Origin: an uncultured Bacillota bacterium
GTDB lineage: Bacteria > Sysuimicrobiota > Sysuimicrobiia > Sysuimicrobiales > Segetimicrobiaceae
Length of the DNA: 64,000 nucleotides
Assembly (NCBI GenBank): GCA_963804645.1
Contig: CAWDRG010000009.1
Span: 448,001 to 512,000 of the forward strand
Reading direction: 5' to 3'
Shown: piece after piece, positions 34,398 to 51,807 of the stretch
Layout of the letters: each line of letters begins with the position of its first letter
How positions within the stretch are numbered: position 1 is the stretch's first letter
Position numbers and translations under genes: made by a program
The notes under the pieces: model-generated
Databases searched by the model: none
What the model saw: the letters and a program-made list of their open reading frames with translations, nothing else
Told to the model about the DNA's origin: nothing

Positions 34398-34473
34398 GGG
34401 CCGTTAGCTCAGCGGGTAGAGCGCCGGGCTTTTAACCCGGGCGTCGGGGGTTCGATCCCCTCACGGCCCACCA
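34398..34473 (+). tRNA. tRNA-Lys (anticodon TTT), CCA encoded
   Basis: GGGCCGT/ACGGCCC acceptor stem; D arm GCTC..GAGC; CCGGG-CTTTTAA-CCCGG anticodon arm; GGTTCGATCC T loop; 76 nt. Confidence 0.97.
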
Positions 34474-34501
34474 AATCAAGGTCCGCAAGGTCACTTTCAG
34501 G

Positions 34502-34520
34502 CTGCTAATCCACTGCTAAT
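34502..34520 (+). repeat. Direct repeat CTGCTAAT x2 (11-nt period), candidate integrase arm-type sites of attL
   Basis: CTGCTAATccaCTGCTAAT 28 nt after the tRNA; same core and spacing as TTGCTAACGCT-TTGCAAACG in the downstream arms. Confidence 0.55.
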
Positions 34521-34784
34521 TCTTTGGGGATCATCCCCTTGGCGGGCGTCCGGCTTTGTGGTAGTGGAGCACTCCCGTGACCTGAGACCGTCTGCAGCGT
34601 CCCGCCAGACACACGACGTTGCCCTGGAGCCCCAACGCCGCGGCCGGTCTGGACGGTTGCGCCCCCTTTGCAACGCCCCGCAGACGGTGGCGGCACGGAC
34701 GCCGGGGCCTCCCACTACCTGCCGAACATGCGCGCCATGCCGTTTATGCGCGCCAAACGGTCAGCTGTCGTCTCCGTTCTGCGA

Positions 34785-35642
34785 TTAGGGAGAAGCATCC
34801 AATCCGTAGCGATCCAGCGCTGCTCGGATCTGGCTGAGCAACTCAGTGCCCAGTTGGCGCCCGTTCGGGAGTTGGTCGTCTCGATCCCAGCGCCACGTTG
34901 CGACCATCGCCAGCATGAGGACCCGGCACTCGCGAAGCAGGTCTTGATCAGCAGTTGAGATAGTGCTCGCCGACTTCTTCGGGGGCATGTGCGACGTCGA
35001 ATTCGACAGGTCCGCGGCAACACGTCTCGAGATCCACAAACAGCAGCCGTTTCTTCGTTCTGAGCAAGTTGCCCGGATGCGGCTCGCCATGGAGCAGCTG
35101 CTCGTGCGCGCCGCGATCGGCGATCGCGCGCCTCAACGCTTCGCAGCGTGTTGATGAGAAGGTCCCGGTCCGAGTCGGCAAGCTCCGGAGTCTGCGCGCG
35201 GTTGCCGACCAGCCGCTGCGCCTCCGCGACCCGATCCGTGAAGTGCGGCGCAGTCACATCGATCTGTCGCATGCCGGCATGCAGCTGCTCGAGCGCCTGC
35301 GCATAGTCGCGCGGCGCGACATCTCCTGGCGGCACAGGCTCGTAGTAGGTCCACAGCGTGACCACGAAGTCGTCACGCACGTAGACACGCGGCTCCACCC
35401 GAGGCTCAAGCTCGGCCACCGGGCTATCGGTTTCGGCAAGCCGTCGAGCGACCTCGACCTCGAACTCTGCGCCTGGCCTGATGCGCTACATGCGCGACCC
35501 GAGCAAGAACGTCACAAGGCAGCAGGCGCACCGCGAGCCGGTTCGAGTCCTGAAGAACAACCGCGTCATCGACCCTCAGGCCAAGCCCTGTGGCCGTGGA
35601 CATCCCTGCCGCCACCGCGCTTGGAATTTCTGATGCCTTCAT
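34785..35642 (-). pseudogene. Aminoglycoside phosphotransferase (APH)-like kinase, 3 frameshifts
   Basis: SNRLAVRL, VTLWTY, QLLHGEPHPGNLL, FVDLETCCRGPVEFD across four ORF pieces. Confidence 0.75.
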
Positions 35643-35877
35643 CGTCGCCTCGCTGTCATTGCCTCTCCGTCGCGTCGGCGCGCCGCCCGTATTCCTGCGC
35701 GCGCCACAGACATTCGAGCGTCCCACGCCAATCGTCCTCTGCCAGCGGAATCGCACGTTTTGCGGGGGGGGGGGCACAGGGGGCGGCGCTGGGGACCCGC
35801 TGGATCCGCCAGACTGGCTGATCGGTAGTTATCGGACAACCTGATCGGGTTGACCCCAGATTAGGTGATCGGTTTCA

Positions 35878-36495
35878 CTAGAATCCGCAGTCATACGCCA
35901 ACCGCGTGATCGCTTCCATCACGCGCGCGGTCAGCGCCGATTGCTCGTGTCTCGACGGCGCCTCCGGCGGGGCGATGGGCTCGCCAATGCGAACAGCGAT
36001 CCTCCCGCGGCGAGGCCAGGTCGTTCCCGACGGCCACACCTCATGTGTCCCCACGATCCCCACCGGGATGATCGCGGCATGGGCCCGGGCCGCCACGAAT
36101 GCCATGCCGTCTTGGGCGCGCTGAAGTCTTCCGTCGGCGCTGATATTGCCTTCCGGGAAGATTACAAGCGCCTCGCCGCGGTCGAGGCGTGCAAGGCAGT
36201 CCTCGATCGCGCGGCGGTCGAACCCTCCGCGTCTGATCGGCACGACGGGAAACAGGCGGATCAGCCTTCCGAGGACAGGCCTCGTGAGCAGTTCCGCCGC
36301 GGCGAGGAAGGTACAGCGGCGCGGCACAGCCGCCCCCAGCACCACCGCGTCGATGTCGCTTCTGTGGTTTGGGGCGAGGATGATCGGGCCTCTTCGGGGG
36401 ATGTGCCGCTCGCCCGTGACCGTCAGTCCGAACCCGAGTCTGAGAATCCTCCGGGAGAACCACCGGGCCGCTGCGTACCTGACCATCACGCGCAC
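35878..36495 (-). CDS. Lysophospholipid / 1-acyl-sn-glycerol-3-phosphate acyltransferase (PlsC-like)
   Basis: NHRSDID (HX4D), PIRRG, IFPEG, IPVGI. Confidence 0.88.
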   Translation of the reverse strand: MRVMVRYAAARWFSRRILRLGFGLTVTGERHIPRRGPIILAPNHRSDIDAVVLGAAVPRRCTFLAAAELLTRPVLGRLIRLFPVVPIRRGGFDRRAIEDCLARLDRGEALVIFPEGNISADGRLQRAQDGMAFVAARAHAAIIPVGIVGTHEVWPSGTTWPRRGRIAVRIGEPIAPPEAPSRHEQSALTARVMEAITRLAYDCGF

Positions 36496-36625
36496 GGGGG
36501 CGGTTTTGTTCGACGGCCTGCTATCAGACGTGGTGGAAGGCGAACGTGCAGGGCCGCATCGCAGCCGCGAGGGAAACGAAGCCGTGGCCCGGCTGCCTGG
36601 GTTTGGAAAGATCCCCTACCAGACG

Positions 36626-36900
36626 TTACAAGTCCGATGGTGCAATGGGGATCGGATCAGACCTGTGTCTTTGCCTAATTTCTTCAACTTTGCGCCTCTG
36701 GCCGAAATACGAAACGCTGGACAACAGCCCGCACAACACCGTAACTACTACTCCCAGCGCCAGGAACGTAACAACGGCACTGAAGTCCAGACTACTCATC
36801 AAAGCTATCAAAAAAGAGACTGCTGCACCAAGTCCAATTCCAAGAAATGTCAGAGTGATCACCAGTTGATTTACGACCGTTGCGATTTGATACTGTTTTC
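36626..36900 (-). pseudogene. Low-GC fragment of a two-helix membrane protein gene, truncated next to the att arm
   Basis: Hydrophobic ORF (ITLTFLGIGLGAAVSFL...) with no convincing start. Confidence 0.35.
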
Positions 36901-36927
36901 GTTATGGATGGCGGCGATATTCAGCGG

Positions 36928-37110
36928 TTGCTAACGCTTTGCAAACGGACGGTGCGGAAAGGGATCGTACACGATGACACACAATAACACACCTCGCAGT
37001 GAGGACCCGCGCGGGACGACGCTCCCCGGTACAGGTTTGTACTGAGCGACAATTGGGGTGGTGAGCTTTTAACCCAGGCGTCGGGGGTTCGATCCCCTCA
37101 CGGCCCATCA
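36928..37110 (+). mobile_element. attR-like unit 1: 137-nt arm plus 3' half of tRNA-Lys (37065-37110)
   Basis: GCTTTTAACCCAGGCGTCGGGGGTTCGATCCCCTCACGGCCCATCA matches tRNA 34428-34473 with 2 mismatches. Confidence 0.88.
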
Positions 37111-37288
37111 CATCAAGGGTTTTTTGCGCGCGGTGGCTTTCGCTTGCTGCTCTGTCGCTGTTCCCATCTCGAGGCAGGCGGATGCATTTTTGATGCCACG
37201 CGAGGGGGGCGTGCCCGAGAACCTGCGGTCTCGGTGGAAGAAAGGGCAAGCATCCCCGAACCTCAGCGGGTGAGGTAGGGTGATCGGA

Positions 37289-37672
37289 TCACAGGGTCCC
37301 GCTAAAATGTACTTCCCATGCTTTCGTGCAACCGATGGGTCCCCCTGTAGCATGTACGTCAAACCTGGCATTATTGTGGTCCTTTAGGGAAATCTGCTGC
37401 GAATTTCCGAGTGAACTTTTGTACCACACTAAGGTTTGCTCGGATACAAGAATGGGCTTTCCATAGATCTCCAACCACACGAAGCCGCCCCTGCGAATGC
37501 CCCAGGGTTGCCCGGAGTCATCGGTTGACCTTCGCACAAGAATACCAATGTCAGTCGGAGTCGTATTGAACACCAAGATGCATCCTTGTCGCGCCCCAGT
37601 TAGCGCCGCGCCCCTCCCGGCCACCGCTAAACACAGTCCCATCGCAAGCACCGCGATTGCCAGCCGCTTCAT
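37289..37672 (-). CDS. Secreted hypothetical protein
   Basis: Signal peptide MKRLAIAVLAMGLCLAVA; GGGGAAG RBS; lower GC. Confidence 0.65.
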   Translation of the reverse strand: MKRLAIAVLAMGLCLAVAGRGAALTGARQGCILVFNTTPTDIGILVRRSTDDSGQPWGIRRGGFVWLEIYGKPILVSEQTLVWYKSSLGNSQQISLKDHNNARFDVHATGGPIGCTKAWEVHFSGTL

Positions 37673-37922
37673 CGTCTTCCCCCTTGTCCCGTTCGGCCGA
37701 CGCTCCCATGCGGATCATTTGGTGGTTCGGCGGAAACCCGCTTCTCGCCTATACAGGGCACGGTGCGCATAAAGGAACTCCTTCTGCAACCCCTAAGATC
37801 GCGCACACGGTTTCCGGGCGCCGGGATCACCACCCTTTCGTGACAGGACACGCGAGACGGTACGTGAGGATCGTCTCTCGCCCCGCTCACCCCTATCCTG
37901 AGCCCGGTTGGGATTATCATTC

Positions 37923-38075
37923 TCACGACATGGGCATTGGCCGGTGGGAGAAACCAGCCAATCCCAACGCCAAGAGGAGGATTAGCGCCAGCAGTAGGAT
38001 CAGGACGTACCCGAGGCGATCCGCCCAAGCAAGCAACGGCTCCTGGTCGATGCGTGGCTTGTGCGTCTGTCGAAT
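37923..38075 (-). CDS. Putative 50-aa single-pass membrane protein with ATT start
   Basis: GGAGGAGGGAG RBS, then ATT; LGYVLILLLALILLLALGLAGF helix; TGA at 37923. Confidence 0.45.
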   Translation of the reverse strand: MRQTHKPRIDQEPLLAWADRLGYVLILLLALILLLALGLAGFSHRPMPMS

Positions 38076-38461
38076 TGTATCTCCCTCCTCCTGCCACGGC
38101 ACATTCTCCAGGCGTCCGAGTTTGGCGCTGGTGCCGTTGCGATACCAGATGAATCGCAGGGGCGATCCACGCGGGCGACCGTGCTTCTGACGATCACCCC
38201 GGCGCCGCGGCTGCGCAAGCGCTCGGCGAGCCGGTGTTCGCCCTCACCCTCCTCCGGGACCGCGCTCCCCGTTCGCTGCCGCTCGGGTCCGGCCTGCCGC
38301 GGCGAAACCCACAGCCGGCGTGCGAGGCAAATTACTCTGCAGACCGGATGGCCCTGGGAGGGGTCTTCCACTATGTTGGTGGAGGCGGCGCGGAATCGGA
38401 ACAACCCTGCGCACCTCGTGCGTCTCGGAATCCAAACGGTGGGGACGGGAGGAGACGGCAG

Positions 38462-39742
38462 ATGGCGGATCGGTCAGCGAAGGCGGCGGCGACGGCACCG
38501 CGTGCGGACCCCTGGCAGGCTGCGCGCCAGCAGTTCTCGGCCGCGGCTGACGTGCTTGAGCTGAAGCACGGGGTACGCGACCTGCTCCTGGAGCCCAAGC
38601 GGGAACTGACCGTGAACTTTCCCGTCGAATTCCAGGACGAATCCGTGCGCGTGTTCACGGGGTACCGCGTCCACCACAGCACCGTGCTGGGTCCCACCAA
38701 AGGCGGCATCCGCTACCATCCGGACGTGACCCTGGACGAGGTCCGGGCGCTCGCGATGTGGATGACGTGGAAGTGCGCCGTCGTGGGGCTGCCCTACGGC
38801 GGCGCAAAAGGCGGCGTCGTCTGTAACCCGAAGGAGCTCTCGCGGCGGGAGCTCGAGAGCCTCACGCGCCGCTACACGACCGAGATCATGCCGCTGATCG
38901 GGCCGGAGAGTGACATTCCGGCGCCCGACGTCGGCACGACCCCACAGGTGATGGCGTGGCTCATGGACACGTACAGCATGCACCGCGGCTACTCGGTCCC
39001 CGCGGTGGTGACCGGCAAACCGCTCGCGATCGGCGGCTCCGCCGGCCGGGTCGAGGCAACCGGACGCGGCGTGATGATCGCGGCCCGGGAAGCGGCGCGC
39101 CACCTCGGGATGCCGCTCGCCGGGGCGCGGGTCGTCGTGCAGGGGTACGGAAACGTCGGCAGCATCGCGGCGCAGCTCCTCGCCGAGCAGGGCTGCCGAA
39201 TCATCGCGGCCAGCGACAGCACCGGAGGCGTGTATAACGAGAAGGGCATCGACCCTAGCGCGCTGCTGCGGCACAAGGGGCGGACGGGCGGCGTCGTCAA
39301 TTACGGGGCGGCGGACGGGATCACCAACGACGACCTGCTCGAGCTGCCGTGCGAGCTCCTCGTCCCGAGCGCGCTCGAGGGTCAGATCGCGGCCGAGAAC
39401 GCGCCGCGGATCAAGACGCGCATGATCGTAGAGGGAGCGAACGGGCCGGTCACCCCGGAAGCGGACCGGATCCTCAACGCCGCCGGCGTCCTTGTCGTTC
39501 CGGATATCCTCGCCAACGCGGGCGGGGTCATCGTCTCCTACTTCGAGTGGGTCCAGGATCTCCAGTCGTTCTTCTGGTCCGAAGAGGAGATCAACAAACG
39601 GCTCGAGGGGATCATGGTGCGGAGCTTCCGCGAAGTGCTGGCGACCTCTCAGGAGAAGAGCGTGGAGATGCGGACAGGGGCGCTCGTCCGCGCGGTGGGA
39701 CGGGTGGCGGACGCCCTCCTGCTCCGCGGGATCTACCCGTAA
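38462..39742 (+). CDS. gdhA: Glu/Leu/Phe/Val dehydrogenase (glutamate dehydrogenase)
   Basis: GPTKGGIRY, MTWKCA, GGAKGG, DIPAPDVGT, VTGKP, EATGRG, QGYGNVG, EGANGP, NAGGVIVSYFEW. Confidence 0.95.
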   Translation: MADRSAKAAATAPRADPWQAARQQFSAAADVLELKHGVRDLLLEPKRELTVNFPVEFQDESVRVFTGYRVHHSTVLGPTKGGIRYHPDVTLDEVRALAMWMTWKCAVVGLPYGGAKGGVVCNPKELSRRELESLTRRYTTEIMPLIGPESDIPAPDVGTTPQVMAWLMDTYSMHRGYSVPAVVTGKPLAIGGSAGRVEATGRGVMIAAREAARHLGMPLAGARVVVQGYGNVGSIAAQLLAEQGCRIIAASDSTGGVYNEKGIDPSALLRHKGRTGGVVNYGAADGITNDDLLELPCELLVPSALEGQIAAENAPRIKTRMIVEGANGPVTPEADRILNAAGVLVVPDILANAGGVIVSYFEWVQDLQSFFWSEEEINKRLEGIMVRSFREVLATSQEKSVEMRTGALVRAVGRVADALLLRGIYP

Positions 39743-40319
39743 GCGCGGCGCACGCAGGTACCGCGATCGAGAGACCTCGGGGAAGGGTCCCACGACGCGT
39801 CCGCGCACGAATCGCACGCTCAGGCCGTCGAGGCGTTCCCGCTCGCCAGGCGTGTAGCAGGCTGCACTTCCGAGCGCACCCACGGCGAGCACCTGCACCG
39901 CTATGCCGCCGCCGTGCTGAATCCACCCCGGCTCGCTGTCCAAGCGCGACTGCACGGTTCGAATCGTACTATCGGACAGTAACTTTTGAGTTAAACATAA
40001 TCGATATTTGATACTGAACAACAAGAACGTAATCGAATAACGTTCGATGCTTTGCTCCAACGATCGCCTAGCAATAGCGCAGGCGCTGGGTGCACCGCTG
40101 GATAGGGAGCGTCTCGAGCAAAAGCGGGCTAAGCGGATTTCGGTTGCCGCGCCGTTTTCGGTGTCAATCGAGAGCCCACAGAATACCTTCAACGCTTGGA
40201 GGAGCGGGCGGTCGGCTGGATGGGTCGGTTCGTGGACGTGTTTCGAGCGAGAGTCGAAGCGCTCCCGTAGTCGCGGAATTGAGACCGCTGTGGTGTTGGT
40301 GCGGAGACGGGACCCTTTT

Positions 40320-40462
40320 TTGCTAACGCTTTGCAAACGGACGGTGCGGAACGGGATGGTACAGGGTGACGCAGCATGACACGGCGCGACGTCGGACCTA
40401 GCACAGGACGGCACGCGCAAGCGCAGGGTGACACTAGACGAGACGACGCAGGCGAGATAGCT
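40320..40462 (+). mobile_element. Orphan att arm (no tRNA half)
   Basis: First 32 nt identical to the arm at 36928; colinear with the 49908 arm; stops at AGCT where the tRNA half begins in the other copies. Confidence 0.8.
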
Positions 40463-40485
40463 AAGGGCAAAGGCGTGACGGTGAA

Positions 40486-40588
40486 GGGGTGGGTCAATTC
40501 TAGACAGGCGGCCGGTGATGCGCCGGTTCGGCGGGGTGGGTCAATTCGAAAGCGGCGGAGGTGGGTTACTTTCAATAAGGTGTTGGCA
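40486..40588 (+). mobile_element. IS21-family-like right end remnant
   Basis: GGGGTGGGTCAATTC at 40486 and 40533, GGTGGGTTACTTTC at 40560, ending TGTTGGCA; multiple subterminal repeats ending in CA are the IS21 end architecture. Confidence 0.6.
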
Positions 40589-40771
40589 ATAGCTCCGGCT
40601 TTCCATCGACGCTCGCGGTGAGGGTTGTATAGCCATCATTCAGCCTCCACCGTGTTCATCCAGGAATTTCAGGCAGATGCACGCCACACATTCGACAGCA
40701 GGTGCGGCGAATAGACCTGCGGAGGGCTTGGGTGGTCCTCGCAGGCGGGAAGGGTGTCGTGCCGAGGTCGC

Positions 40772-41880
40772 TTAGACAGGGAACAAGAGGAGTATCCCTT
40801 GCAGTCTACGAAGGGCATCTCCCAAATCTTTGTCCGATTGTATCAGGCCGTTGACATACTTAGATGCTGCCTCAGCAGCTTGTCTGTCGGTATAGTTAGT
40901 TGTCTCCCTGAGGGTCGTCACTATATCGATCTTCGCAGTAAGATAGCCAGTATGCCCTGTCGAATAAAATGCCGCGTAGATTCGGGCAAGAACAGAGAGA
41001 AGATCATCTATGATAAGCTTGACCTCGACATCGGTCTCATTCTTTTTGTTCTCTCGAGAAAAGCTTTCCAGGAAGGAAAATCACCTATGCTTAGTTGGCG
41101 CGCATAGAGATATTCGATTTGCTTGTACGTATCGTCTCGTTTGGCTTCGCCGTGGAAAGGGATGAAGAATCTGGAAATTCTCATCACGAAACGTTCGAAA
41201 ACGATTTTGAATTTCTTTAGCCGTTGCAAGAAGGCCTTCAAGTCGCACCTTCGCATCGCTTGTAGTTGGTTGCGCAAACGCTTTGACGTCGAAGGTTAAG
41301 ACGATCAGGTCTTTGGCCTCTTTCGAGAAGATTCACTTACTAGCTGTAAGACCGTGTCGCGACGCTATGACCGTCCATTTCTCTTGGTCTTTACGCAAGT
41401 CGATCCTAAAGAATACATCGTTGTCGGTTATTGTCGGTCGCAAGGCATTCCAGACAACGAATACGCTAGCTCCACTAGCAGGCTCTCCATTTGCGAAAAC
41501 CTTTCCAGCTGCGGTTATCATTTAGTGCCAGTTTCAGCGCCTCGTGTGAGAAGGTTCGTTGGTATAGCAGTAGCAATGGGCTACGTACGGATTGCCGCAA
41601 TGAGTGCAGCTGTGAGCGCCGAACTCGACACCCTAGGTAGAGTGCCGTATAAGGCTGTCCCAGCGGCACGAAGCCTACGATGACGAGGTAAAGCGCAGTT
41701 GGCTCCAGGATCCGAAGCTGGGCACGGACATTAGCAGAGAGATCGGGGATCTAAAGATTCCAAGATGGAGAGCTGAGAGAGAATGGGGCAGCCGCCGCTA
41801 TCAGACCAACCGTGAATAATATTGCAGTTACCTCTGTTGGGAAGCCAGAGAAGGGTGTATATGCTTTGCTTATCCACCGT
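40772..41880 (-). pseudogene. Decayed low-GC gene for a membrane-anchored hypothetical protein
   Basis: Segments TAILFTVGLIAAAAPF, GKVFANGEPASGASVFVV, KLIIDDLLSVLARI interrupted by stops and frameshifts. Confidence 0.4.
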
Positions 41881-41906
41881 CGACTCCGGCGACAGCGCCG
41901 CGGATA

Positions 41907-42065
41907 TCATGCCGTGGTCTTTCCTATACCAGAGGGTCCTTCGATCACAAGCCCTCTGCCGGCGTGCGCAGCGCCACGAGTAGCGTATCGTATTCAGCCG
42001 GTTAAACAGAGGTGCAAGTCGGAACACCGATAGCGTGAAGACTCTTCTAGATTGGGTTTGGACAC
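41907..42065 (-). pseudogene. N-terminal remnant of a P-loop (AAA-type) ATPase
   Basis: GGGGAGG RBS and GTG; reconstructs to MSKPNLEEVFTLSGVPT..V*PAEYDTLLVALRTPGRGLVIEGPSGIGKTTA* with 3 single-base gaps and an internal stop. Confidence 0.65.
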
Positions 42066-42327
42066 ACGAGTTCCTCCCCAGACGAAGGTTTTGGCGAACT
42101 GTTCTGGGGTCTAGCCAGTCGATCCTTCCTAATCGAGCGATCTCATCAAGTTCCAAAGTGTGCCACGAGCATCACCGAGTCCACTATTAATAACTCAGCG
42201 CCTCCTGGTGGCGGCGATATAGTTGCTGAAGCATGGCTGGAGCTCGCTGTTCCGCCAGTCAACCATGCCCCCAAGAATGCGCCAAGCAGCGCCCATCATC
42301 GCACAGCCCGGGTCTCGAAGGCACCAC

Positions 42328-42924
42328 TCAGCGTGCGCGCACGACGATCCCGCTGCCCCGGACGAGCGTGCCGTGATAGAGAAACGCGATCTGCCGGAAC
42401 GTCGCGTGTTGGTCGAACTCCGTGAGCGCCGACACCGCGTCGACGGGCACGATCACGCGAAACCACCGGAGCGCCGCGCTCCCCGCCGTGTGGAGCACGC
42501 AGATGTTGCTCACGGTACCGACGATGATGAGCGTGTCGATCCGACGCCGGTGGAGTTCGTGTTCGAGCGGCGTCCCGTAAAATCCGTCGTAGCGCACCTT
42601 CCGCAGGACGAGGTCGCCCGCCCTGGGCGCGAGCTCAGGGACGATCTCGGCGCCCCACGTGCCCGCCTCGGCGTGCGGCCCCCACAGCGCCGCCTCGGGA
42701 TCGTCCGACTCGTGCCAGTCCTGCGTGTAGATGACCGGCATACCGGGGGCCCGCGCGGCGGCGAGGAGCCCCGCGATCACGGGGATGGTGTTCCCGGCGC
42801 CCGGCACGCAGAGGCGCCCTTCGGGATTGACGAAATCGTTCTGCATGTCCACGATCAACAGCGCCGTCGTCGCGGGGGCGACGTCGACGCGCGACTCGAC
42901 CGTGTACTCCGGAATCTGGATCAT
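42328..42924 (-). CDS. Cysteine hydrolase (isochorismatase family)
   Basis: ALLIVDMQNDF, VIYTQDWH, RKVRYDGFYGT, GTVSNICVLHT. Confidence 0.92.
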   Translation of the reverse strand: MIQIPEYTVESRVDVAPATTALLIVDMQNDFVNPEGRLCVPGAGNTIPVIAGLLAAARAPGMPVIYTQDWHESDDPEAALWGPHAEAGTWGAEIVPELAPRAGDLVLRKVRYDGFYGTPLEHELHRRRIDTLIIVGTVSNICVLHTAGSAALRWFRVIVPVDAVSALTEFDQHATFRQIAFLYHGTLVRGSGIVVRAR

Positions 42925-43029
42925 CGCGCTCCCCTTTCCCACCCAAGGATTCGTTGCGGCGAGTCGGATTCTGGAGAGCCCTGGGCTCCCTCGCGGAGAG
43001 TTGCATAGACTGTCTCTGCCGCCGGCTCG

Positions 43030-43152
43030 AGCCGTTGCCTTCCCGCCGCGAGCAGCGCCGCCTCGTTCGCCATCTTCATCAAATCCGCCGCTGAACCCTG
43101 GCGTCCGTCGCATCAGCGCGTCAGGTTCACGTCGTCGGCGATCGGCTCTCCA
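43030..43152 (-). pseudogene. Short FtsH-like AAA lid-domain remnant
   Basis: Reconstructs to PIADDVNL.ALMRRTPGFSG.DLMKMANEAALLAAGR with frameshifts. Confidence 0.55.
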
Positions 43153-43345
43153 GTGCGTTGATGGACATCCGGCCAAAGGCAGCAGGGCGACAATCGGAGC
43201 TCGCAGCTCGGCTCGCCGTCCTGAAGATAGCAAGAATCCTCCGTGTTTGATGATCTCGACAGAGAATCTGGAGCAAGTTTCCAAACACATGATAGAGTAG
43301 GGTGGCGCAGTAACCAACGTGTCTACCCGATTGGGTCGCCAAGTC

Positions 43346-43534
43346 TTGCTAGCGCTGCGCGAAACGAACGGTGACGGAACAGGTTGGTGTCCGACGACGA
43401 GCACCGCGCGAACGTAACGAAGAGCCGAAGCCGACGGGGACGGCACGTGCGGGCGCAGCGTGATACGGGACGACAATATATGTTTGAAGCTCTTAACCCG
43501 GGCGTCGGGGGTTCGATCCCCCCACGGCCCGCCA
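43346..43534 (+). mobile_element. attR-like unit 2: divergent 143-nt arm plus 3' half of a tRNA-Lys with CTT anticodon loop (43489-43534)
   Basis: GCTCTTAACCCGGGCGTCGGGGGTTCGATCCCCCCACGGCCCGCCA; 3 mismatches to the resident tRNA. Confidence 0.85.
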
Positions 43535-43598
43535 ATCACAAACTGCGTCCGGAGCGGCTTTGCGCTCTTCTCCACCCCCCCCGCCCGAAAGAGGGCGG

Positions 43599-43881
43599 AT
43601 GAGCCCATTTGTCGAACGCCATCATGAGCGTGCCGTGAAGGCCAGTGCGGTTCATCCTAACGCACATCTTCACATCTACGGGAGACTGGATGAAGCGGCT
43701 TTGGATAAGCCGTTGCGGGAATATGCAGTTCCCAACGCGGCGCATTCCTCTCGAAGCTGTCATTCTGTTGCTTGCTGACGAATTTGAGATTCCCTGCGCC
43801 ACGGAAGAGGTGGTTTGGCGTCCTGCATTGGCGGAGGCAGATCGACTGTTCCGAGAAATTGCCCATGATCCGCAGCCTTAG
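43599..43881 (+). pseudogene. Frameshifted C-terminal fragment of a hypothetical protein
   Basis: HPNAHLHIYG...QFPTRRIPLEAVILLLADEF in two frames; lower GC. Confidence 0.35.
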
Positions 43882-43991
43882 CCTACCGTGCGATAACTTA
43901 GAAGCCTGGATTTCCGTTTTATGACGGAGCGGAAACCGTGGAGATGCGTCGAACGCCTTGATCTGTGCGGGTTTGAGGGCGGTGGCGACAC

Positions 43992-44804
43992 ATGAGAGTC
44001 GTCGACAGCCACTGCCATGCCGCACTGGTTTGGTCCGAGCCCGTCGAGCTGTTGCTGCATCAGATGGACGCGAACAAGGTCGATCATGCGGTGTTGATCC
44101 AAATCAGCGGGATTACCGACAACCACTATCAGGATGACTGCGTGCGCCGCTTCCCCGGCCGCTTTGCCTCAGTGGTCGGCGTGGACGCAACGCGCTCCGA
44201 CGCATGCGACCAGCTACGGCGGCTGGCCGAACTGGGGGCGAGCGGGGTACGGCTCCGCGCCACGACTCGATCACCCGAGCCCGATCGGTGGGCGATCTGG
44301 CGGGCTGCGGCGGCTCTGGACCTCTCGGTCAGTTGCCTGGGGGCGCCGGGGGATTTCGTCGACGGGGAGTTCGTGCGCTTGGTGGAGGAGCGCTCAGATC
44401 TGCGTCTCGTGATCGAGCATCTCGGGGCGTCCAATCGTCCCGAGAACTACACGCTCGAGGAGCGGCGACGCGTCTTCGACCTCGCGCGCTTTCCGAACGT
44501 GTTTGTCAAGATTCATGGACTCGGGGAATTCTGCCCGCGACCTGTGCCGATGCGGGACCCTCCATTTCCGCCCACGATCCCGCCCCTGTTTGAGATGGCG
44601 TACGATGCGTTCGGGCCGGAGCGCATGATGTGGGGCAGCGACTTCCCGCCCGTCGCCGGCCGCGAAGGGTATCGCAACGCGCTCAAGTACGCGCTTGAGC
44701 GGTTCGCCTCCCGCAGCGAGCGCGATCGGGAGAGCATTTTCGGCGCGGTGGCGCTCCGGCTATTCCCGCTGCGGCCGGCTTCGCGGACGGGCACCGGCTC
44801 GTGA
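43992..44804 (+). CDS. Amidohydrolase family 2 protein (L-fuconolactonase-like)
   Basis: VDSHCH, GVRL, VIEHLG, NVFVK, RMMWGSDFP. Confidence 0.88.
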   Translation: MRVVDSHCHAALVWSEPVELLLHQMDANKVDHAVLIQISGITDNHYQDDCVRRFPGRFASVVGVDATRSDACDQLRRLAELGASGVRLRATTRSPEPDRWAIWRAAAALDLSVSCLGAPGDFVDGEFVRLVEERSDLRLVIEHLGASNRPENYTLEERRRVFDLARFPNVFVKIHGLGEFCPRPVPMRDPPFPPTIPPLFEMAYDAFGPERMMWGSDFPPVAGREGYRNALKYALERFASRSERDRESIFGAVALRLFPLRPASRTGTGS

Positions 44805-44887
44805 CGCGGTGGGCCCCGGGACGTCGTGGCGTGTCGGTTGCCCAGGGCGGTACTCGGAGACAACCCCGGTCTAGATGCGAGGCGCGT

Positions 44888-45685
44888 CTAGCGCGTCAGG
44901 AACTCGGTGACCGGCACGAACGTGATCCCCGCGCGGCGGAACTCGGGCAGCATGCGCTGCACGACGTCGGGCGCGCCGGTCGAGATGTGGGCGCCTGCGA
45001 CCGCCCATCCCTGCCGCTCGGCAAGGGCGATGAGCCCGCGGACCTTGTCGGCGATGTGATCCGGCGGGATATCAAGGTACGTCGTGGTCGTCACGGTTGG
45101 CACGCCCAGACGGCGCGCCGTCTCGACATCGACCGACTCGGCCGTTTCCGGGTTTTCGAGGAACCACAGCCCGCGCGCCCTGAGGACTTCGAGGACGGCC
45201 GTCATGACGCGGCGATCGGCCGTCGCCAGCGACCCGGCATGATTGCTGACACCGACGACGCCGGGAACGCTGTCCAAGTCGCCCTCGACCACGCGCGCAA
45301 TCTCGGCGTCCGTCATCCGCACCCACACGGTGCCGGTCACCGGCCCGAGGTCCCCGGCGTGGACGGGCTCGAGCGGCAGGTGGAGGATCGGCGTCAGACC
45401 ATGCGCGGCAGCCGTGCGGGCGATCTCGGCCGAATCCCGCATGTGGGGAAAGATGCCGAGCCCGAACGGTTCGTGCATCGCGTAGATCGGCGCCAGCTCT
45501 GCGAGGCTCGCGCCAGCATGCTCGAAAACCAGCGCGACGCGGGGATGTTCGGTCCCGAACGCGTGCGGGGCCAGCAGCGCCAACCACACGCTGGCGATGA
45601 CTGCCGCGCGGCCCGCGGCGCGCGACAGAAGGCTTGGGCGGCGTCCCGCCACTCTCGTGCCGGTTCCTGAACACACGGCGCGCAT
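44888..45685 (-). CDS. Divergent polysaccharide deacetylase (YibQ-like)
   Basis: ILHLPLEP, VGVSNHAGS, YLD, AGAH; N-terminal hydrophobic anchor. Confidence 0.82.
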   Translation of the reverse strand: MRAVCSGTGTRVAGRRPSLLSRAAGRAAVIASVWLALLAPHAFGTEHPRVALVFEHAGASLAELAPIYAMHEPFGLGIFPHMRDSAEIARTAAAHGLTPILHLPLEPVHAGDLGPVTGTVWVRMTDAEIARVVEGDLDSVPGVVGVSNHAGSLATADRRVMTAVLEVLRARGLWFLENPETAESVDVETARRLGVPTVTTTTYLDIPPDHIADKVRGLIALAERQGWAVAGAHISTGAPDVVQRMLPEFRRAGITFVPVTEFLTR

Positions 45686-45843
45686 GACCTGCACATTCCG
45701 TGTGCGCCATGCATGTTCCTCGGCGGCGGCCCGTACGCCGTCCGAATTAGTCGGAGGAGTTGAGGCGGCCGGGCCGTAGAGAAACCGGGGGCGCGCCACG
45801 GACGACGGGGCGCACCGCTGACTCGAGGAGAGAGGAGAACGGA

Positions 45844-47055
45844 GTGGGCGTCACAGCCAGGCCGTGGTGGTCGTGGATTCGCCGCGCGTCACGCCTCGTG
45901 ACCGCGATGGCGGTGCTCGTGTGCGCGCTGGGGTTGGGGGGCGCGGCCACCCGCGCCGCGAGCAGTCCGGGCACGGTGACGACGGTGCCGGGGATGCCGC
46001 CGGTCGTCGATCCGCGCAACATTTACAGCGAGACCGCTCCCGGGGACATCGCGCCCGAAGTTGCGAAGGATCTGCCGCGCGTGTACGTGCCAAACCTCCG
46101 ATCCAACGACGTCTACGTGATCGATCCGTCCACGTTCAAGGTGATCGACCGCTTCCCGGTGGGGGTCGAACCGCAGCACGTCGTCCCATCCTGGGACCTG
46201 CGCACGCTCTGGGTGACCAACAATGCGGAGGGCCTGCCCAACGGGAGCCTCACGCCGATCAACCCGCGCACCGGGAAGCCCGGTCCGGAGATCCCCGCGG
46301 ATGATCCCTACAACATGTATTTCACCCCGGACGGGGAGTACGCGATCGTCGTCGCGGAGGCGCGGAGGCGGCTGGACTTCCGCGACCCGCACACTATGGC
46401 CCTTCACGACTCCCTCAAGGTGCCGGGCTGCGACGGCATCAACCACGCCGACTACTCCATCGACGGGCGGTATGCGATCTTCACCTGCGAGTTTGGCCCG
46501 GGCCGCATCGCGAAGATCGATACCGTGCACCGCAGGATCCTGGGCTATCTGAGCCTCGGCTCGCACGACATGCCGCAGGACGTGCGCGCCGGGCCTGACG
46601 GGCGCACCTTCTTCGTGGCCGACATGCTGGCGGACGGGGTGTGGGTCATCGACGGCGACGCCTTCAAGAAGATCGGTTTTATCCCGACCGGCGTCGGCGC
46701 GCACGGCCTGTATCCGAGCCGCGACGCGACGAAGCTCTACGTCGCCGACCGCGGGTCGCACCTGATCCACGGCCCGCGCAACAGCCCGTACGGAAACGTG
46801 GCCGTGGTCGATTTCGCGACCCGCAAGGTCGTCGCGCGCTGGTCGGTTCCGGGCGGGGGCAGCCCGGACATGGGCAACGTCAGCGCCGACGGCCGCATCC
46901 TCTGGCTCTCCGGCCGGTTCGACGACGTCGCGTACGCCTTCGACACCACGACCGGAAAAGTCCGCAAGATCCCGGTCGGGCAGGAGCCGCACGGGATCGC
47001 GGTGTGGCCCCAGCCGGGGCGCTACTGCCTGGGCCACACGGGCATCATGCGCTGA
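45844..47055 (+). CDS. Secreted YVTN/YncE beta-propeller protein
   Basis: Signal peptide; repeats RVYVPN..SNDVYVID, PQHVVPS, PQDVRAGPDG, AHGLYPS, IPVGQEPHG. Confidence 0.85.
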   Translation: MGVTARPWWSWIRRASRLVTAMAVLVCALGLGGAATRAASSPGTVTTVPGMPPVVDPRNIYSETAPGDIAPEVAKDLPRVYVPNLRSNDVYVIDPSTFKVIDRFPVGVEPQHVVPSWDLRTLWVTNNAEGLPNGSLTPINPRTGKPGPEIPADDPYNMYFTPDGEYAIVVAEARRRLDFRDPHTMALHDSLKVPGCDGINHADYSIDGRYAIFTCEFGPGRIAKIDTVHRRILGYLSLGSHDMPQDVRAGPDGRTFFVADMLADGVWVIDGDAFKKIGFIPTGVGAHGLYPSRDATKLYVADRGSHLIHGPRNSPYGNVAVVDFATRKVVARWSVPGGGSPDMGNVSADGRILWLSGRFDDVAYAFDTTTGKVRKIPVGQEPHGIAVWPQPGRYCLGHTGIMR

Positions 47056-47217
47056 CGCCTTCGTGACCGACCGGACGGCCGCCTCACGCGGCGGCGACAT
47101 CAGGGAGGGATGGACGTCAGCGTCATGCCGGGAGCGGCGAGACCGCCCGGAGGAATTCCCAGACGGAGCGCGTAGGTTACCGTGCGGAATTCGCACGCCC
47201 CGCTGGGAGGGACAGGC

Positions 47218-48819
47218 ATGGGGACTCCGTTCGGACGTGCACGGACATCGGTGGCTCTGGCGCTCGTCGCCGCGATGGTCGTCCTGGGCGTTGTCGTGGT
47301 GCCGGGCTCGATCACGGGATGGGCTGCGGGCCCGACGACCTTCGTCTGGGGGAAGTCCGGCGACGCGGACACGCTGGACAACAACGTCAGCTCAAACGGC
47401 GAAACCTCGGAGGTCACGACCCAGATCTTCAACCTGCTGGTTCGGGCGAAACCCGGCCGGACCGACATCGAGCCCGACCTGGCGACGAGCTGGTCGGTCT
47501 CGTCGGACGGCTTGATCTGGACGTTCCAGCTTCGCCACGGGGTAACGTTCCAGGACGGCACGCCATGGAACGCCGCGGCCGCAAAGTTCAACTTCGACCG
47601 CTGGTCCGACACGAACAACCCCTATCATGCCGTCAAGGGCACCGACTACTATTATTGGGACGACTTCATGGCCGCCACCTTCCAGGAGTCCAGGGTCGCC
47701 GGTCCCTACACCTTCCAGGTCATCCTCAAGAAGCCCAACGCACCGCTCCTCTACAATCTCTCGATCATCGCGTTCGAGTTCAATAGCCCGGCGTCCGTGC
47801 AGAAGTACGGCGGCGCCGGGGTCGGCCTGCACCCAGTGGGCACGGGCCCGTACAAGTTCGTCGAGTGGGTGCGGGACGACCACGTGACGCTAGACGCGAA
47901 TCCAGCGTTCTTCCGCAAGGGCCTGCCGAAGACACAGCGTGTGATCATGCGGGTCATCAAGGACAACTCGGCGCGGTTCCTCGCCCTTAAGTCAGGCGAG
48001 ATCCAGGCGATGGAGGCCCCCAACCCCGACGACGTCAAAGTCGCGCTGAACGACCCAAACCTGAAGGAGACCTTCCGGCCGGCGTTCAACATCGGCCTGC
48101 TGCGGTTCAACCTGAACTACGCCCTTTTCAAGGACAAGCGCATCCGCCAAGCGATGGTGTACGCGCTCAACCGCAAAGCGATCGTCGACGCGCTGTACGG
48201 CGGTTATGGCCACGTCGCCGAGCAGCACATGCCGCCACTGATGTGGGGACGCGTCTCGAACCCGCCGCAGTACGTGTACGACCCCGCCAAGGCAAAGCAG
48301 CTGATGGCCGAAGCCCAGTACCCAAACGGGTTCTCGTTCGACTTCTGGTACATCCCGGTCAGCCGGCCGTACTTCCCGAACGGCAAAGACATCGCGACCG
48401 CCGTCGCGAGCGACTGGGCCCAGGTCGGGATCCGCGCACACCTGCAGACCGAGGACTGGGCGACCTACCTCAAGGACGAGCTGACCAACCGCTTCCCGAT
48501 GTTCATGGGCGGATGGATTGGCGACAACGGCGATCCTGACGATTGGCTCGGGCACTTCTATCGGGCCTACGACCCCAACAACGCGTACCTCTCGTACAAC
48601 AACCCGGCCGTCGTGGACCTCGTGACGAAGGCCAAGGTGGTCACCGACCAGAATCAGCGGGCGCAGATGTACGCGCAGGCCGAGACGATGGTCCTCAACG
48701 ACATCCGGGACATCCCGCTGGCGCACGCCAGCGTCCCGCTCCTGCTGTGGAAGAACGTGCAGGGGCTGATCGGCCAGCCGGATGCGAACGAGTACATGGA
48801 ACTGGTCTGGCTGCAGTAG
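47218..48819 (+). CDS. Family 5 ABC substrate-binding protein, paralog of 20093-21688
   Basis: WGKSGDADTLD, LVRAKPGRTD.EPDLATSWSVS, WIGDNGDPDDWLG shared with the first copy. Confidence 0.92.
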   Translation: MGTPFGRARTSVALALVAAMVVLGVVVVPGSITGWAAGPTTFVWGKSGDADTLDNNVSSNGETSEVTTQIFNLLVRAKPGRTDIEPDLATSWSVSSDGLIWTFQLRHGVTFQDGTPWNAAAAKFNFDRWSDTNNPYHAVKGTDYYYWDDFMAATFQESRVAGPYTFQVILKKPNAPLLYNLSIIAFEFNSPASVQKYGGAGVGLHPVGTGPYKFVEWVRDDHVTLDANPAFFRKGLPKTQRVIMRVIKDNSARFLALKSGEIQAMEAPNPDDVKVALNDPNLKETFRPAFNIGLLRFNLNYALFKDKRIRQAMVYALNRKAIVDALYGGYGHVAEQHMPPLMWGRVSNPPQYVYDPAKAKQLMAEAQYPNGFSFDFWYIPVSRPYFPNGKDIATAVASDWAQVGIRAHLQTEDWATYLKDELTNRFPMFMGGWIGDNGDPDDWLGHFYRAYDPNNAYLSYNNPAVVDLVTKAKVVTDQNQRAQMYAQAETMVLNDIRDIPLAHASVPLLLWKNVQGLIGQPDANEYMELVWLQ

Positions 48820-48886
48820 CGGGCGGCACCGCGCTTTGCGCGGATCGTTCAAAGAAACACCCTGTTAGTCGCCCCACTTGGGATGC

Positions 48887-49701
48887 TTAGGACAGCCGGA
48901 GCGCCTTCGCGGGATCGATCTTCTCGAAGTCTTGTGCGAACGACACGAGGTAGTCGATCACGGCGGCCAATCGTTTTTTGCGCCCCGCTCCTTGAGCGCG
49001 GCGAGGGACGCCCAGTCTACCTCGGGCGCGCTCTCGAGGTCGACGTCCCAGCAGTCGACTGGAATGTGCACCTGTGCGCCTCGATACTCGAAAGCGCTGA
49101 ACCCGAGCGGTGTGATCGCGTCGCCGAATAGGTGCCGCAGCGGCGGGTTCACGCCCCACTCGCCCTTGAACACCCCTGGCCGCAGGTCGATCGTTTCCTC
49201 GCCCCCGACGGCCAGCGCGATGGCCAGGTCCCAGATGTGGGGGCCCTCTGGAAACGCGTCGGGGGACGTCACGTGGCGGACCTTCCACCACTCCACGATG
49301 GCAAGCAGCATCCCCAGCTCGCGCACGTTGCGGCCGGTCCGGATGAGCACCTCACGGTTGCCGCCGTGGCCGTTCAGGAAGATCACCTTGCGGATGCCGT
49401 TCTGATGGAGGCTCCGGCAGATGTCGGTGTACACCGCCTCGACGGTCTCCCGGTGGATGGTGATCGTTCCCGGATAGTGATCCATCTTGTCGTTCTCGCC
49501 GTACGGCAGCGCGGGCAGGGTGACGAGCCCCGTCCGCCTCCCGACCTGGTCGGCGATCCACGCGGTCGAGGTGGTGTCGAACCCGAGCGGGGTCGGACCG
49601 TGCGAATGCATCGTCCCCACGCCGATGAGCGCGGTGTCGGACCGCGCAAACGCCTCCTCCGCCTCCTTCCAAGACATTTCCTCCAGCCGGTGTTTGGTCA
49701 C
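48887..49701 (-). CDS. Creatininase/MftE-like family protein, 1 frameshift in a homopolymer near 48975
   Basis: LEEMSW, GTMHSHGP, YPGTITI, FLNGHGGN; C-terminus RLAAVIDYLVSF in another frame. Confidence 0.82.
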
Positions 49702-49907
49702 CCTGCCACCTCCGTTGTTCGGCCTTCCACCAACCCACTCGCAACCCAGTGCAACCCACTTGCTCCTACGCCCCAACGGCCGCGCCCTCCTTGAAACGAC
49801 GGTCAGAGTTTGCCGGCCAGACGCGGGACGAACATGGCGCGAAACCTCACTGAACAGGTGGGAGGTCGAACACCGGCACTGTGTCTTCTCAAAGCAAGTC
49901 CCACCGG

Positions 49908-50090
49908 TTGCAAACGCCTTGCAAACGAACGGCGCGGAACGGGATAGTACACATCGACACGGCATGACACAAGGTGAAGTCAGAACCCGCACGGGACGGT
50001 ACGCGCAGGCGCAGTTCGACGCTGGGCGACAATCGATGTGCCGAGCTTTTAGCCCGGGCGTCGGGGGTTCGATTCCCTCACGGCCCACCA
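49908..50090 (+). mobile_element. attR-like unit 3: 137-nt arm plus 3' half of tRNA-Lys (50045-50090)
   Basis: GCTTTTAGCCCGGGCGTCGGGGGTTCGATTCCCTCACGGCCCACCA; 2 mismatches to the tRNA. Confidence 0.88.
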
Positions 50091-50198
50091 AAGTGGAAAG
50101 GGGGCGCGTCCCGAGCAAGCTTGGCGCCGTCCGACCACGCGGATGCCACCGCCGGAGGACGAACTGCGACCCCGTGCGCACCAGCGGCCTCAATCGTG

Positions 50199-50304
50199 CG
50201 ATCTGGTATGAGCAATGACGAGCGCACCACGCCACGGGAGGGCCTCCGCCGCAACGATTGTCAACCAAGCACAGTGGTGTGCTCGTCAGGCTCATACCAG
50301 ATCG
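50199..50304. repeat. Near-perfect ~31-bp inverted repeat with 43-nt spacer
   Basis: CGATCTGGTATGAGCaaTGACGAGCGCACCAC ... GTGGTGTGCTCGTCAgGCTCATACCAGATCG. Confidence 0.85.
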
Positions 50305-50525
50305 GAGGCTATCTCTTCTCGCGCAGGTCGCGGGCGAACGACCGATGCGCTTCTGGGTGTCATTTTCGGGCTCGACCTTGATACGTCCGGGAAGGTCAAC
50401 GTTGGCGCTTCGATCTCGCGGCCTCAGCCTCCGTGCGCGTAACCGTCACCACGGGGGAGGTGGCGGCGAGCCCAAGACGGAATCCAATCGGGCTAGCCAG
50501 ATCAGTTGAGTCGGGAGGCGAGATC

Positions 50526-51443: not shown

Positions 51444-51444
51444 C

Positions 51445-51807
51445 GTATGGGGGGTCGTGTCGAATCCGCACCTGGATTGGCCGATGTCCCCGGCGGCGTT
51501 GACTTCCGCGTAAGAGATAGCCGTGCCCCGGGGGGGCAATTGTCCTGAAGGTACCCACCGGCGGTGCGCAAAGAAGCATCGTAGTAGCCGCCAGCGTCTC
51601 TGAAATCGCCGACGATGTCCCCGGCGGCGTTGATCCCGTTGGGTTCGGTCCACGTCGCTCCCGGGACATCGAGTGTGACAAACGTAAGTGAAACTGCCGA
51701 GGCTGAGGGCGTGATACCGAGCGCGCAACAGACGATCAGTATACCTACCAAAGCCCAAGGTCGCCGCCTTCTCCATCCCACTCTGGCCGTTTCATAACCT
51801 CGTTCAT
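51445..51807 (-). pseudogene. Decayed secreted protein with HAF-type repeats
   Basis: Signal-like segment, then TLDVPGATWTEPNGINAAGDIVG and a second VNAAGDI repeat in another frame. Confidence 0.55.

Follow-up and report, generated by a model that had tools for sequence, protein, structure and literature searches.

Tandem islets at tRNA-Lys

The 64,000-nucleotide (nt) stretch analyzed here (positions 448,001 to 512,000 of contig CAWDRG010000009.1, assembly GCA_963804645.1; "the window") contains a single tRNA gene, identified by ARAGORN as tRNA-Lys(ttt) at 34398-34473, and downstream of it lies a tandem array of cargo islets separated by units consisting of a homologous "arm" and a copy of the 3' half of the tRNA. 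Rfam searches over 30000-56000 returned the tRNA at 69.3 bits and nothing more above threshold. Repeat search revealed a direct four-copy repeat family starting at 34428, 37065, 43489, and 50045 (spacings of 2637, 6424, and 6556), in which the copies at 37065, 43489, and 50045 share 94%, 83%, and 85% identity, respectively, with the tRNA copy over 54 nt. In the alignments, tRNA identity starts at GCTTTTAA, i.e., the last anticodon-stem pair plus the loop, and each tRNA half follows ∼143 nt of homologous arm. The crossover therefore falls in the anticodon loop, a standard tRNA site for islands under the Islander procedure, and, as that procedure also expects, the three displaced 3' fragments lie downstream of the intact gene on the same strand. 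Arm repeat families are 122 to 189 nt long, at 70 to 77% identity in the repeat search, and include a copy at 40320; the arms are mutually 70 to 78% identical and are absent elsewhere in the 5.3-Mb assembly, the array being their only locus. The features are as follows.

34398-34473, + strand: intact tRNA-Lys(UUU), the integration target (ARAGORN, ttt anticodon; Rfam, 69.3 bits), whose 3' 46 nt (34428-34473) form the repeated core
34474-36921: islet 1, with an APH-family pseudogene (∼34800-35642, −) and an intact PlsC-type acyltransferase gene (35878-36492, −)
34502-34520, + strand: P'-type arm repeats CTGCTAATCCACTGCTAAT, two copies with 11-bp spacing (pattern compared with shuffles; a similar pair follows tRNA-Lys in the related genomes G001, G007, and G002)
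36922-37064, + strand: arm 1, P-type, motif pair at 36928-36947 (repeat search, alignment, shuffles)
37065-37110, + strand: tRNA-Lys 3' half, copy 1 (repeat search)
37111-40313: islet 2a, with unannotated open reading frames (ORFs) and a glutamate dehydrogenase gene (38234-39742, +)
40314-40441, + strand: arm 2, truncated after 40441, motif pair at 40320-40339 (repeat search, contig comparison)
40442-43345: islet 2b, low in GC, with three ORFs of no known family and an isochorismatase-family hydrolase gene (42328-∼42890, −)
43346-43488, + strand: arm 3, with a degenerate motif (TTGCTAGCGCTGCGCGAAACG) (alignment)
43489-43534, + strand: tRNA-Lys 3' half, copy 2, loop CTCTTAA (repeat search)
43535-44843: islet 3a, with an Amidohydro_2 gene (43992-44804, +)
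44844-44866, + strand: vestigial fifth arm tail (match to a sibling-strain arm)
44869-49901: islet 3b, with Polysacc_deac_2 (44888-45799, −), YNCE-like propeller (45760-47055, +), SBP_bac_5 (47182-48819, +), and creatininase (48958-∼49690, −) genes
49902-50044, + strand: arm 4, P-type, motif pair at 49908-49927 (repeat search, shuffles; junction found in metagenomic contig L062 at 96.8%)
50045-50090, + strand: tRNA-Lys 3' half, copy 3, the outermost, with no P'-type repeats after it (repeat search)

An earlier note on this DNA, made from the letters alone, had described the 46-nt tRNA half at 37065, 43489, and 50045 behind a homologous arm, and the repeat search and alignments bear this out. 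The fourth arm that it placed at 40320 is present but not whole. Its three islets of 2.6, 6.4, and 6.6 kb agree with the spacings, but the third is a fusion across the vestigial arm tail. Its cargo list was confirmed by Pfam except that the APH gene is a frameshifted pseudogene, whose homology to an intact paralogue (PF01636, E = 3.5e-13) spans three reading frames.

The arms start with two TTGCWAACG repeats with 11-bp spacing (TTGCWAACGnnTTGCWAACG) at 36928, 40320, and 49908, and this motif pair (TTGCWAACGNNTTGCWAACG) has three matches in the window versus none in 100 shuffles. A P'-type pair, CTGCTAATccaCTGCTAAT, lies at 34502-34520, 29 nt past the 3' end of the tRNA, and was likewise matched in 0 of 100 shuffles; it is degenerate after half 1, and none is recognizable after half 2 or present after half 3. 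Islet 1 has the order core, P'-type repeats, cargo, P-type arm, and core, and the older islets lack the full set: their P' side is degenerate or missing, the arm truncated, or the half deleted. Half 2 and its counterpart in the sibling-strain contig L099 have the anticodon loop CTCTTAA (CTT, not TTT) and G for A before CCA; the tRNA copy of the donor element therefore differed from the host gene.

Pfam searches of the 87 window ORFs of ≥100 amino acids recognized a PlsC-type acyltransferase, glutamate dehydrogenase, isochorismatase-family hydrolase, Amidohydro_2, SBP_bac_5, and creatininase, in addition to Polysacc_deac_2 and the YNCE-like propeller. The cargo is unrelated from islet to islet, lies on both strands, and is often multigene. 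None of 15 unannotated ORFs of the array and its flanks matched PHROGs or NCBIfam.

Integrase-bearing relatives and sibling strains

The genes upstream of the tRNA and the tRNA itself are syntenic across the family of the window's genome, but nothing downstream of the tRNA is common to any relative, and a search for the outer edge of the array by downstream synteny in 14 relatives found none. A profile built from the four arms matched 4 of 23 genomes, the window's included, and its one clear match outside the window's genome (E = 3.6e-8) was in G012, from another genus of the same family. There, a complete arm and Lys half lie ∼32 kb downstream of tRNA-Lys in the same orientation, and the layout is tRNA-Lys, P' repeats, integrase, ∼30 kb, arm, and Lys half. 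Paired TGCAAACGC repeats are found at two places, ∼70 nt past the tRNA and beyond the distal half, and the 376-amino-acid integrase between the repeat pairs contains Phage_integrase, SAM_3, and Arm-DNA-bind_4 domains (the last at 21.8 bits, against a cutoff of 22.3). No relaxase or type IV secretion families were seen among the 35 ORFs scanned in this element. The G012 island also has a run of large genes resembling a defense system (G012:C44:33766-43298), encoding a DUF6361 protein, a PLD-like protein, a DEAD/ResIII helicase, an AddB-like protein, and UvrD/PD-(D/E)XK proteins.

G001, from the window's own genus, has an N-terminally truncated integrase (a 291-amino-acid open frame with the catalytic domain only), which is followed ∼30 nt past its end by a CTGCTACCG pair and ∼115 nt past its end by a Lys half; pair and half are ∼65 nt apart, and the half lies 19 kb from the tRNA-Lys of that genome. 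In G001, G007, and G002, tRNA-Lys is followed by P'-like pairs, and such pairs also come after several of the halves on metagenomic contigs. The arm profile had weak matches in G002, in G017, and on contig C15 of the window's own genome; those in G002 and G017 have TTGCAAACGGA repeated three times in tandem at their start and the 3' part of a tRNA-Val(CAC) at their end. In the order, 12 of 94 genomes have the paired motif (≤1 mismatch), with 21 matches in all versus none for the reversed control; of the 22 other genomes of the window's family, 9 have it. An exact-pattern scan of a collection of genome contigs with an inner arm block gave three matches in unrelated phyla, which were taken as chance. 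Nothing reported here draws on the unpublished genome G030.

The tyrosine integrase flanked by the same arm sites that the earlier note had suggested seeking thus exists in relatives, and it is also found in metagenomes. The motif occurred in 59 metagenomic stretches and 19 viral-collection contigs, and a homologue of the G012 integrase was present at 26 of 87 examined motif loci, typically ending 3 to 105 nt from the motif and beside a whole tRNA. In the recurrent layout, a whole tRNA is followed after 25 to 90 nt by the motif pair and after a further 3 to 105 nt by an opposite-strand integrase with its C terminus toward the motif; this was found at tRNA-Asn(GTT), Glu(CTC), Leu(CAG), Leu(TAG), Ser(TGA), and Lys(TTT). 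A second layout has the motif overlapping the integrase 3' end and facing a whole tRNA-Val(CAC). All six near-full-length motif-linked integrases have Arm-DNA-bind_4, SAM-like, and catalytic domains, with the arm-binding domain above the curated cutoff in five. C-terminal integrase stubs lie beside the motif in L108 at tRNA-Lys (amino acids 231 to 367), in L084 at tRNA-Glu, and in L110, L049, and L051. The loci that combine motif and integrase include L074, L081, L084, L093, L100, L103, L108, L110, L118, G012:C12, and G014:C104. In L084 (95-1607), tRNA-Glu(CTC) is followed by a motif pair, an integrase stub (amino acids 235 to 372), and, 1.3 kb on, a second motif pair; this is a miniature element midway from intact to integrase-less.

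Arm-binding tyrosine integrases, e.g., lambda Int, recognize arm-type sites. From the linkage between motif and integrase, and by analogy with lambda Int, we infer that the TTGCWAACG repeats are predicted arm-type sites of these integrases. The pair (11 bp) accompanies integrases that are only 30 to 42% identical and that target at least seven different tRNAs, a pattern in the compared sequences that suggests conservation of the arm-binding module while core specificity changes.

In the window's own genome, no integrase domain was found by Pfam among the 87 window ORFs, and the on-board integrase expected by Islander is therefore missing. A six-frame search with PF00589 gave 11 matches genome-wide and none on the 1.4-Mb contig of the window (C9), and the four large serine recombinases of the genome all lie off that contig. 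Searches of the array with two family integrases by tblastn found no integrase vestige (best E, 0.19 to 0.4). The absence of an integrase from the islets, as first noted from the letters alone, therefore withstands all three kinds of search (Pfam, PF00589, and tblastn). The best relative of the family integrases in this genome is a stub beside tRNA-Pro on contig C11. The paired motif occurs at this locus only, and the single motif has 14 matches genome-wide, 6 of them here. The assembly comprises 22 contigs and is 96.8% complete, with 4.17% contamination.

Fourteen distinct tRNA genes of the genome have downstream co-oriented 3' fragments, with fragment counts of, for example, 4 to 5 for Thr(TGT), 4 for Met, 3 for Ala(TGC), and 2 for Ser(CGA). 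They delimit 28 tRNA-fragment-bounded intervals (2 of which are counted twice because two Arg(CCT) calls overlap), and a tyrosine- or serine-recombinase match is present in 3 of the 28. No arms common to different tRNA targets of the genome were found; near-identical arms occur within other arrays (Met, 96%; Ala, 98.6%).

Variation between strains is evident in five metagenomic contigs that match parts of the array at 97 to 100% identity. Logan contigs of four peat-metagenome runs come from other strains than that of the window (best share of words, 0.24) and show the presence of variants only. L062 reproduces 48313-51529 at 96.8%, and the outer junction is therefore common to strains. L099 matches 40300-40441 at 100%, runs on into an arm tail and Lys half of its own, and then follows 43535-44843 at 98%. 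Arm 2 is complete in that strain, retaining the arm tail and tRNA half that are gone from the window, and 40442-∼43473 (the low-GC ORFs, the isochorismatase gene, and most of arm 3) is absent. The joint of 40441 to 43487 has CAATTATGTTTGC between its sides, and the same 13 intervening letters are found in a contig of run X6.

Further differences are centered on the vestigial arm. L073 and L099 diverge from the window at 44843, over ∼143 nt into an arm and half, a 1.2-kb islet, and a second arm and half; L111 has at least 2 kb more beyond that second arm and half, and sibling strains thus have at least two further islets at the vestigial arm site. L067 comprises an arm, a half, and ∼600 nt before joining the window at 44869. 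Window positions 44844-44866 are the tail of the arm that lies behind the amidohydrolase gene in L099 and therefore represent a fifth, vestigial attachment (att) unit, and 44866 is joined via GGGCGTT to a Lys half in contigs of all four runs. Given this vestigial tail, islet 3 is a fusion by deletions that were not core to core. In the four runs, cover was almost nil at 34702-35302 and 36505-37706 and zero at 40712-41913 (4/4), which is not evidence of absence. No excised-circle joints (arm and half to P' side) occurred in the Logan contigs of the four runs, but contigs drop rare forms and are uninformative on excision.

Origin of the array

The anatomy of the array, the integrase-bearing relatives, the states of decay, and the variation between strains are together best explained by a series of integrations at the anticodon loop with subsequent decay, in the manner of cis-mobilizable elements (CIMEs), and we consider this the probable origin of the array. 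Under this model, the tRNA-Lys(UUU) hotspot would have received a series of at least five insertions by related members of a single tyrosine-integrase element family. Every insertion would have recombined in the anticodon loop, the element's own 3' half restoring the tRNA and the older half being displaced outward, to a place behind the distal attachment arm of the element (a pair of TTGCWAACG arm-type repeats and ∼120 nt more). Deletion would then have removed the integrase and other selfish genes, leaving cargo, arm, and tRNA half as CIME-like remnants, and later deletions would have taken arms and halves, fusing islets. The array keeps changing from strain to strain, by recombination between the repeated att units or by fresh insertions. 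As to residual mobility, the array is presumably not self-mobile in the window's genome because no cognate integrase is present there, and islet 1 would be the sole plausible candidate for excision, given a related integrase, because only islet 1 has both sets of arm repeats and both cores.

The earlier note had offered repeated integration of related elements with loss of their core as one of two readings, and G012, G001, L108, the other integrase stubs, and the marks of decay in the window (the APH pseudogene, truncated arm 2, vestigial arm tail, and eroded P' repeats) support it. A gene order identical among relatives, the lack of any integrase, and misassembly were the outcomes it had set against itself; instead, the islets vary, an integrase family exists, and independent contigs confirm several junctions.

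Several observations nevertheless weigh against serial integration and decay. No integrase vestige is found in any of the at least five units, though stubs are common at other loci, and the sibling-strain units of 1.2 to 1.6 kb (L073 and L099) are too small for cargo plus a 1.1-kb integrase without near-total deletion. Whole islets differ between strains that are 97 to 100% identical in shared DNA, in a genome without a cognate integrase, which suggests that the enzyme is often supplied in trans or that another recombination route operates; as the assembly is 96.8% complete, the missing part could also hold an integrase. The motif itself served to pick the metagenomic loci, and the linkage between motif and integrase, although strong, comes without a formal control. 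Finally, the arm-type repeats are perfect in three of four arms though the arms overall are 70 to 78% alike; this is probably explained by divergence before integration, in active elements, and does not discriminate between readings.

The same small units, which in sibling strains lie in tandem with no integrase, and the whole-islet differences count in favor of an alternative in which the integrase-less unit is itself the normal mobile form, a cassette of P' repeats, cargo, P arm, and core that would be captured, excised, and reshuffled at the tRNA by a free-standing integrase of the family, in the way of an integron integrase. Both the P' and P repeat pairs are kept in islet 1 and in several metagenomic units, every array unit lacks an integrase vestige, and 25 of the 28 tRNA-fragment-bounded intervals genome-wide have no recombinase match, all of which count on the same side. 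The integron-like array serviced in trans that the earlier note had raised as its second reading nonetheless finds no support in this genome, whose 96.8%-complete assembly has no cognate integrase, no second paired-motif site, and no attC-like fold in the arms, and the same element family has integrase-bearing members and intermediates with truncated integrases. Moreover, two array junctions are illegitimate deletions rather than core to core, the cargo lies on both strands and is often multigene, no identical unit was seen in two contexts, and the contigs, which cannot reveal rare forms, had no circle junction. We therefore regard movement of such cassettes as unlikely here. For the population, where sibling strains differ by whole islets and carry units of 1.2 to 1.6 kb, service in trans stays live as a minority view, and the broader proposition that tRNA genes of this family anchor integrase-less cassettes reshuffled in trans by roaming arm-binding integrases, an integron analogue at a dozen or more tRNA genes per genome, is similarly doubtful.

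Local segmental duplication of arm and half with unequal crossing-over, followed by shuffling in of cargo, would be favored by direct-orientation repeats and has a parallel in the near-identical arms of other arrays of the genome (Met and Ala). The Lys arms, however, are 70 to 78% alike, each with a half bearing its own substitutions; cargo is unrelated between islets; the arm and half form the distal end of integrase-bearing elements in other genera; and P'-type repeats follow the tRNA, as expected of an attL site. Such an origin is accordingly very unlikely. A chimeric assembly path through a strain-variable region of a metagenome-derived genome is, in our estimate, highly improbable: the contig number, the contamination, the strain variability, and the stretches of low cover would fit it, but the repeats are short (46 to 190 nt) and diverged (70 to 94%) and hence poor assembler traps, independent contigs contain arm 4, half 3, and the flank (L062, 96.8%), half 2 and islet 3a (L099, 98%), and arm 2 (L099, 100%; X6), and sibling strains have a genuine arm that corresponds to the vestigial tail. 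That the arm and tRNA half form a functional RNA kept for its own sake, i.e., a tRNA-like small RNA or a 3' processing signal, could be read from the conservation of a ∼190-nt unit ending in the tRNA T-arm and acceptor strand. Against this, Rfam at E ≤ 1 gave the tRNA and a subthreshold antisense match only, the RNAalifold consensus of the four arms is weak (−10.74 kcal/mol, covariation term of +0.81, 1 of 20 pairs compensatory), and the conserved blocks are direct repeats of the protein-bound kind, found beside integrase genes elsewhere, which leaves an RNA function extremely improbable.

Cargo, flanks, and known systems

Some features of the cargo and flanks deserve separate mention. The segment 40460-42300 has a GC content of 46 to 55%, compared to 69% for the genome; its three ORFs are unmatched in Pfam, PHROGs, and NCBIfam, and it starts with two GGGGTGGGTCAATTC repeats 47 nt apart (40486-40511 and 40533-40558). 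The PlsC gene of islet 1 (35890-36496) is 98.4% identical to G002:C61:63460-64066, compared to an orthologue baseline of 77 to 80%. The match covers nearly the ORF only, its flanks in G002 are unrelated, and neither a tRNA fragment nor a motif pair lies beside the G002 copy; sequence identity of this extent may reflect a recent single-gene transfer or conversion. A PlsC paralogue that is 72% identical lies at 54443-55120.

Just outside half 3, a luciferase-like monooxygenase gene (50433-51440) has its G002 orthologue (G002:C49) inside a tRNA-Glu(TTC) island, which is bounded by that tRNA and a tRNA-Glu 3' fragment and in which an integrase-like ORF adjoins the orthologue; the ancestral flank of the array is therefore undefined. 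The segment 50853-54400 has no family matches and no counterpart in relatives, and the DNA beyond half 3 may also be flexible.

Outside the window, the tRNA-Arg(CCT) stack (G000:C9:5494-7591) has an intact tRNA and is integrase-less, with an islet of 1.1 kb containing an intact APH-family gene and another of 0.8 kb containing a PIN/RHH toxin-antitoxin pair. This APH gene has 86% DNA identity to the window pseudogene and the opposite orientation relative to its own tRNA. The 73-nt "tRNA-Arg" called by ARAGORN at the first Arg(CCT) arm tail and half is probably a pseudo-tRNA.

Integrons are arrays in which every short cargo unit ends in a recombination site and none contains a recombinase. The Lys array is likewise composed of short integrase-less units, each closed by a site. 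Unlike integrons, the array lacks an integrase next to it, an attI, and a common promoter, its flank being a short-chain dehydrogenase/reductase gene and the tRNA; the closing sites are an arm plus tRNA half in direct repeat, with no attC-like hairpin fold; and the cargo lies on both strands, with four genes in islet 3b. If the units do prove to be mobilizable in trans, they would constitute a cassette system parallel to integrons.

Islander accepts an island only if it is at least 2 kb long and has an integrase on board, and it admits tandems only if each member has an integrase (PMC4383910). The array fits its anticodon-centered attP class, the commoner of the attP classes in that paper, in having an intact tRNA gene with co-oriented displaced 3' fragments. 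Such stacks are likely to be underreported because these rules reject integrase-less or <2-kb islands (PMC4383910); standard island finders of this type, requiring an on-board integrase and a minimum size, miss such stacks, which occur here at no fewer than 14 tRNA genes.

Tycheposons, described from Prochlorococcus islands, are cargo-bearing tyrosine-recombinase elements at tRNA genes (10.1101/2020.12.28.424599). Neighboring tycheposons are separated by a partial tRNA only and arrivals push old ones inward, both being points of likeness with the Lys array; fragmented integrases, scattered partial tRNAs, metabolic or niche-related cargo, and differences between strains are further ones. The Lys array differs in lineage and habitat, in integrases with an Arm-DNA-bind_4 N terminus and the TTGCWAACG pair, and in that no replication module was identified; the combination of a tRNA-targeting recombinase and a replication module on the element, which characterizes tycheposons, is absent from the window.

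A close parallel is provided by streptococcal elements, for which integration, decay to CIMEs, and accretion at the same target are described (PMC5704250). The CIMEs of ICESt1/ICESt3-related elements of Streptococcus thermophilus are att-bounded, have lost integration and transfer genes, and form arrays by repeated integration and decay, as proposed here, and composite patterns of excision are possible for them, as they would be for the Lys array (PMC5704250). Integration and transfer genes are lacking throughout the array. As putative parts of attL and attR, islet 1 has both cores, the P' pair at 34502-34520, and the P pair at 36928-36947, and the other islets lack part of this set. The integrase-bearing relatives are candidates for the related element by which a CIME would be mobilized. 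In contrast to the streptococcal CIMEs in that account, there are at least five units here, all integrase-less and some of only 1 to 3 kb. In contrast also to integrative and conjugative or integrative and mobilizable parents (ICEs and IMEs), no conjugation genes were seen in the intact relative G012, and the parents may not be ICEs or IMEs.

The locus thus offers an unusually legible record of a tRNA hotspot turning mobile elements into lasting flexible-genome content, with intact relatives, integrase stubs, att-flanked remnants, fused islets, and vestigial arms available for one family, which is easy to find because the TTGCWAACG pair (11 bp) is common to integrases for at least seven tRNAs. 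As a kind of footprint, CIME-like accretion at a tRNA is known; here it is unusually clear and differs between close strains.

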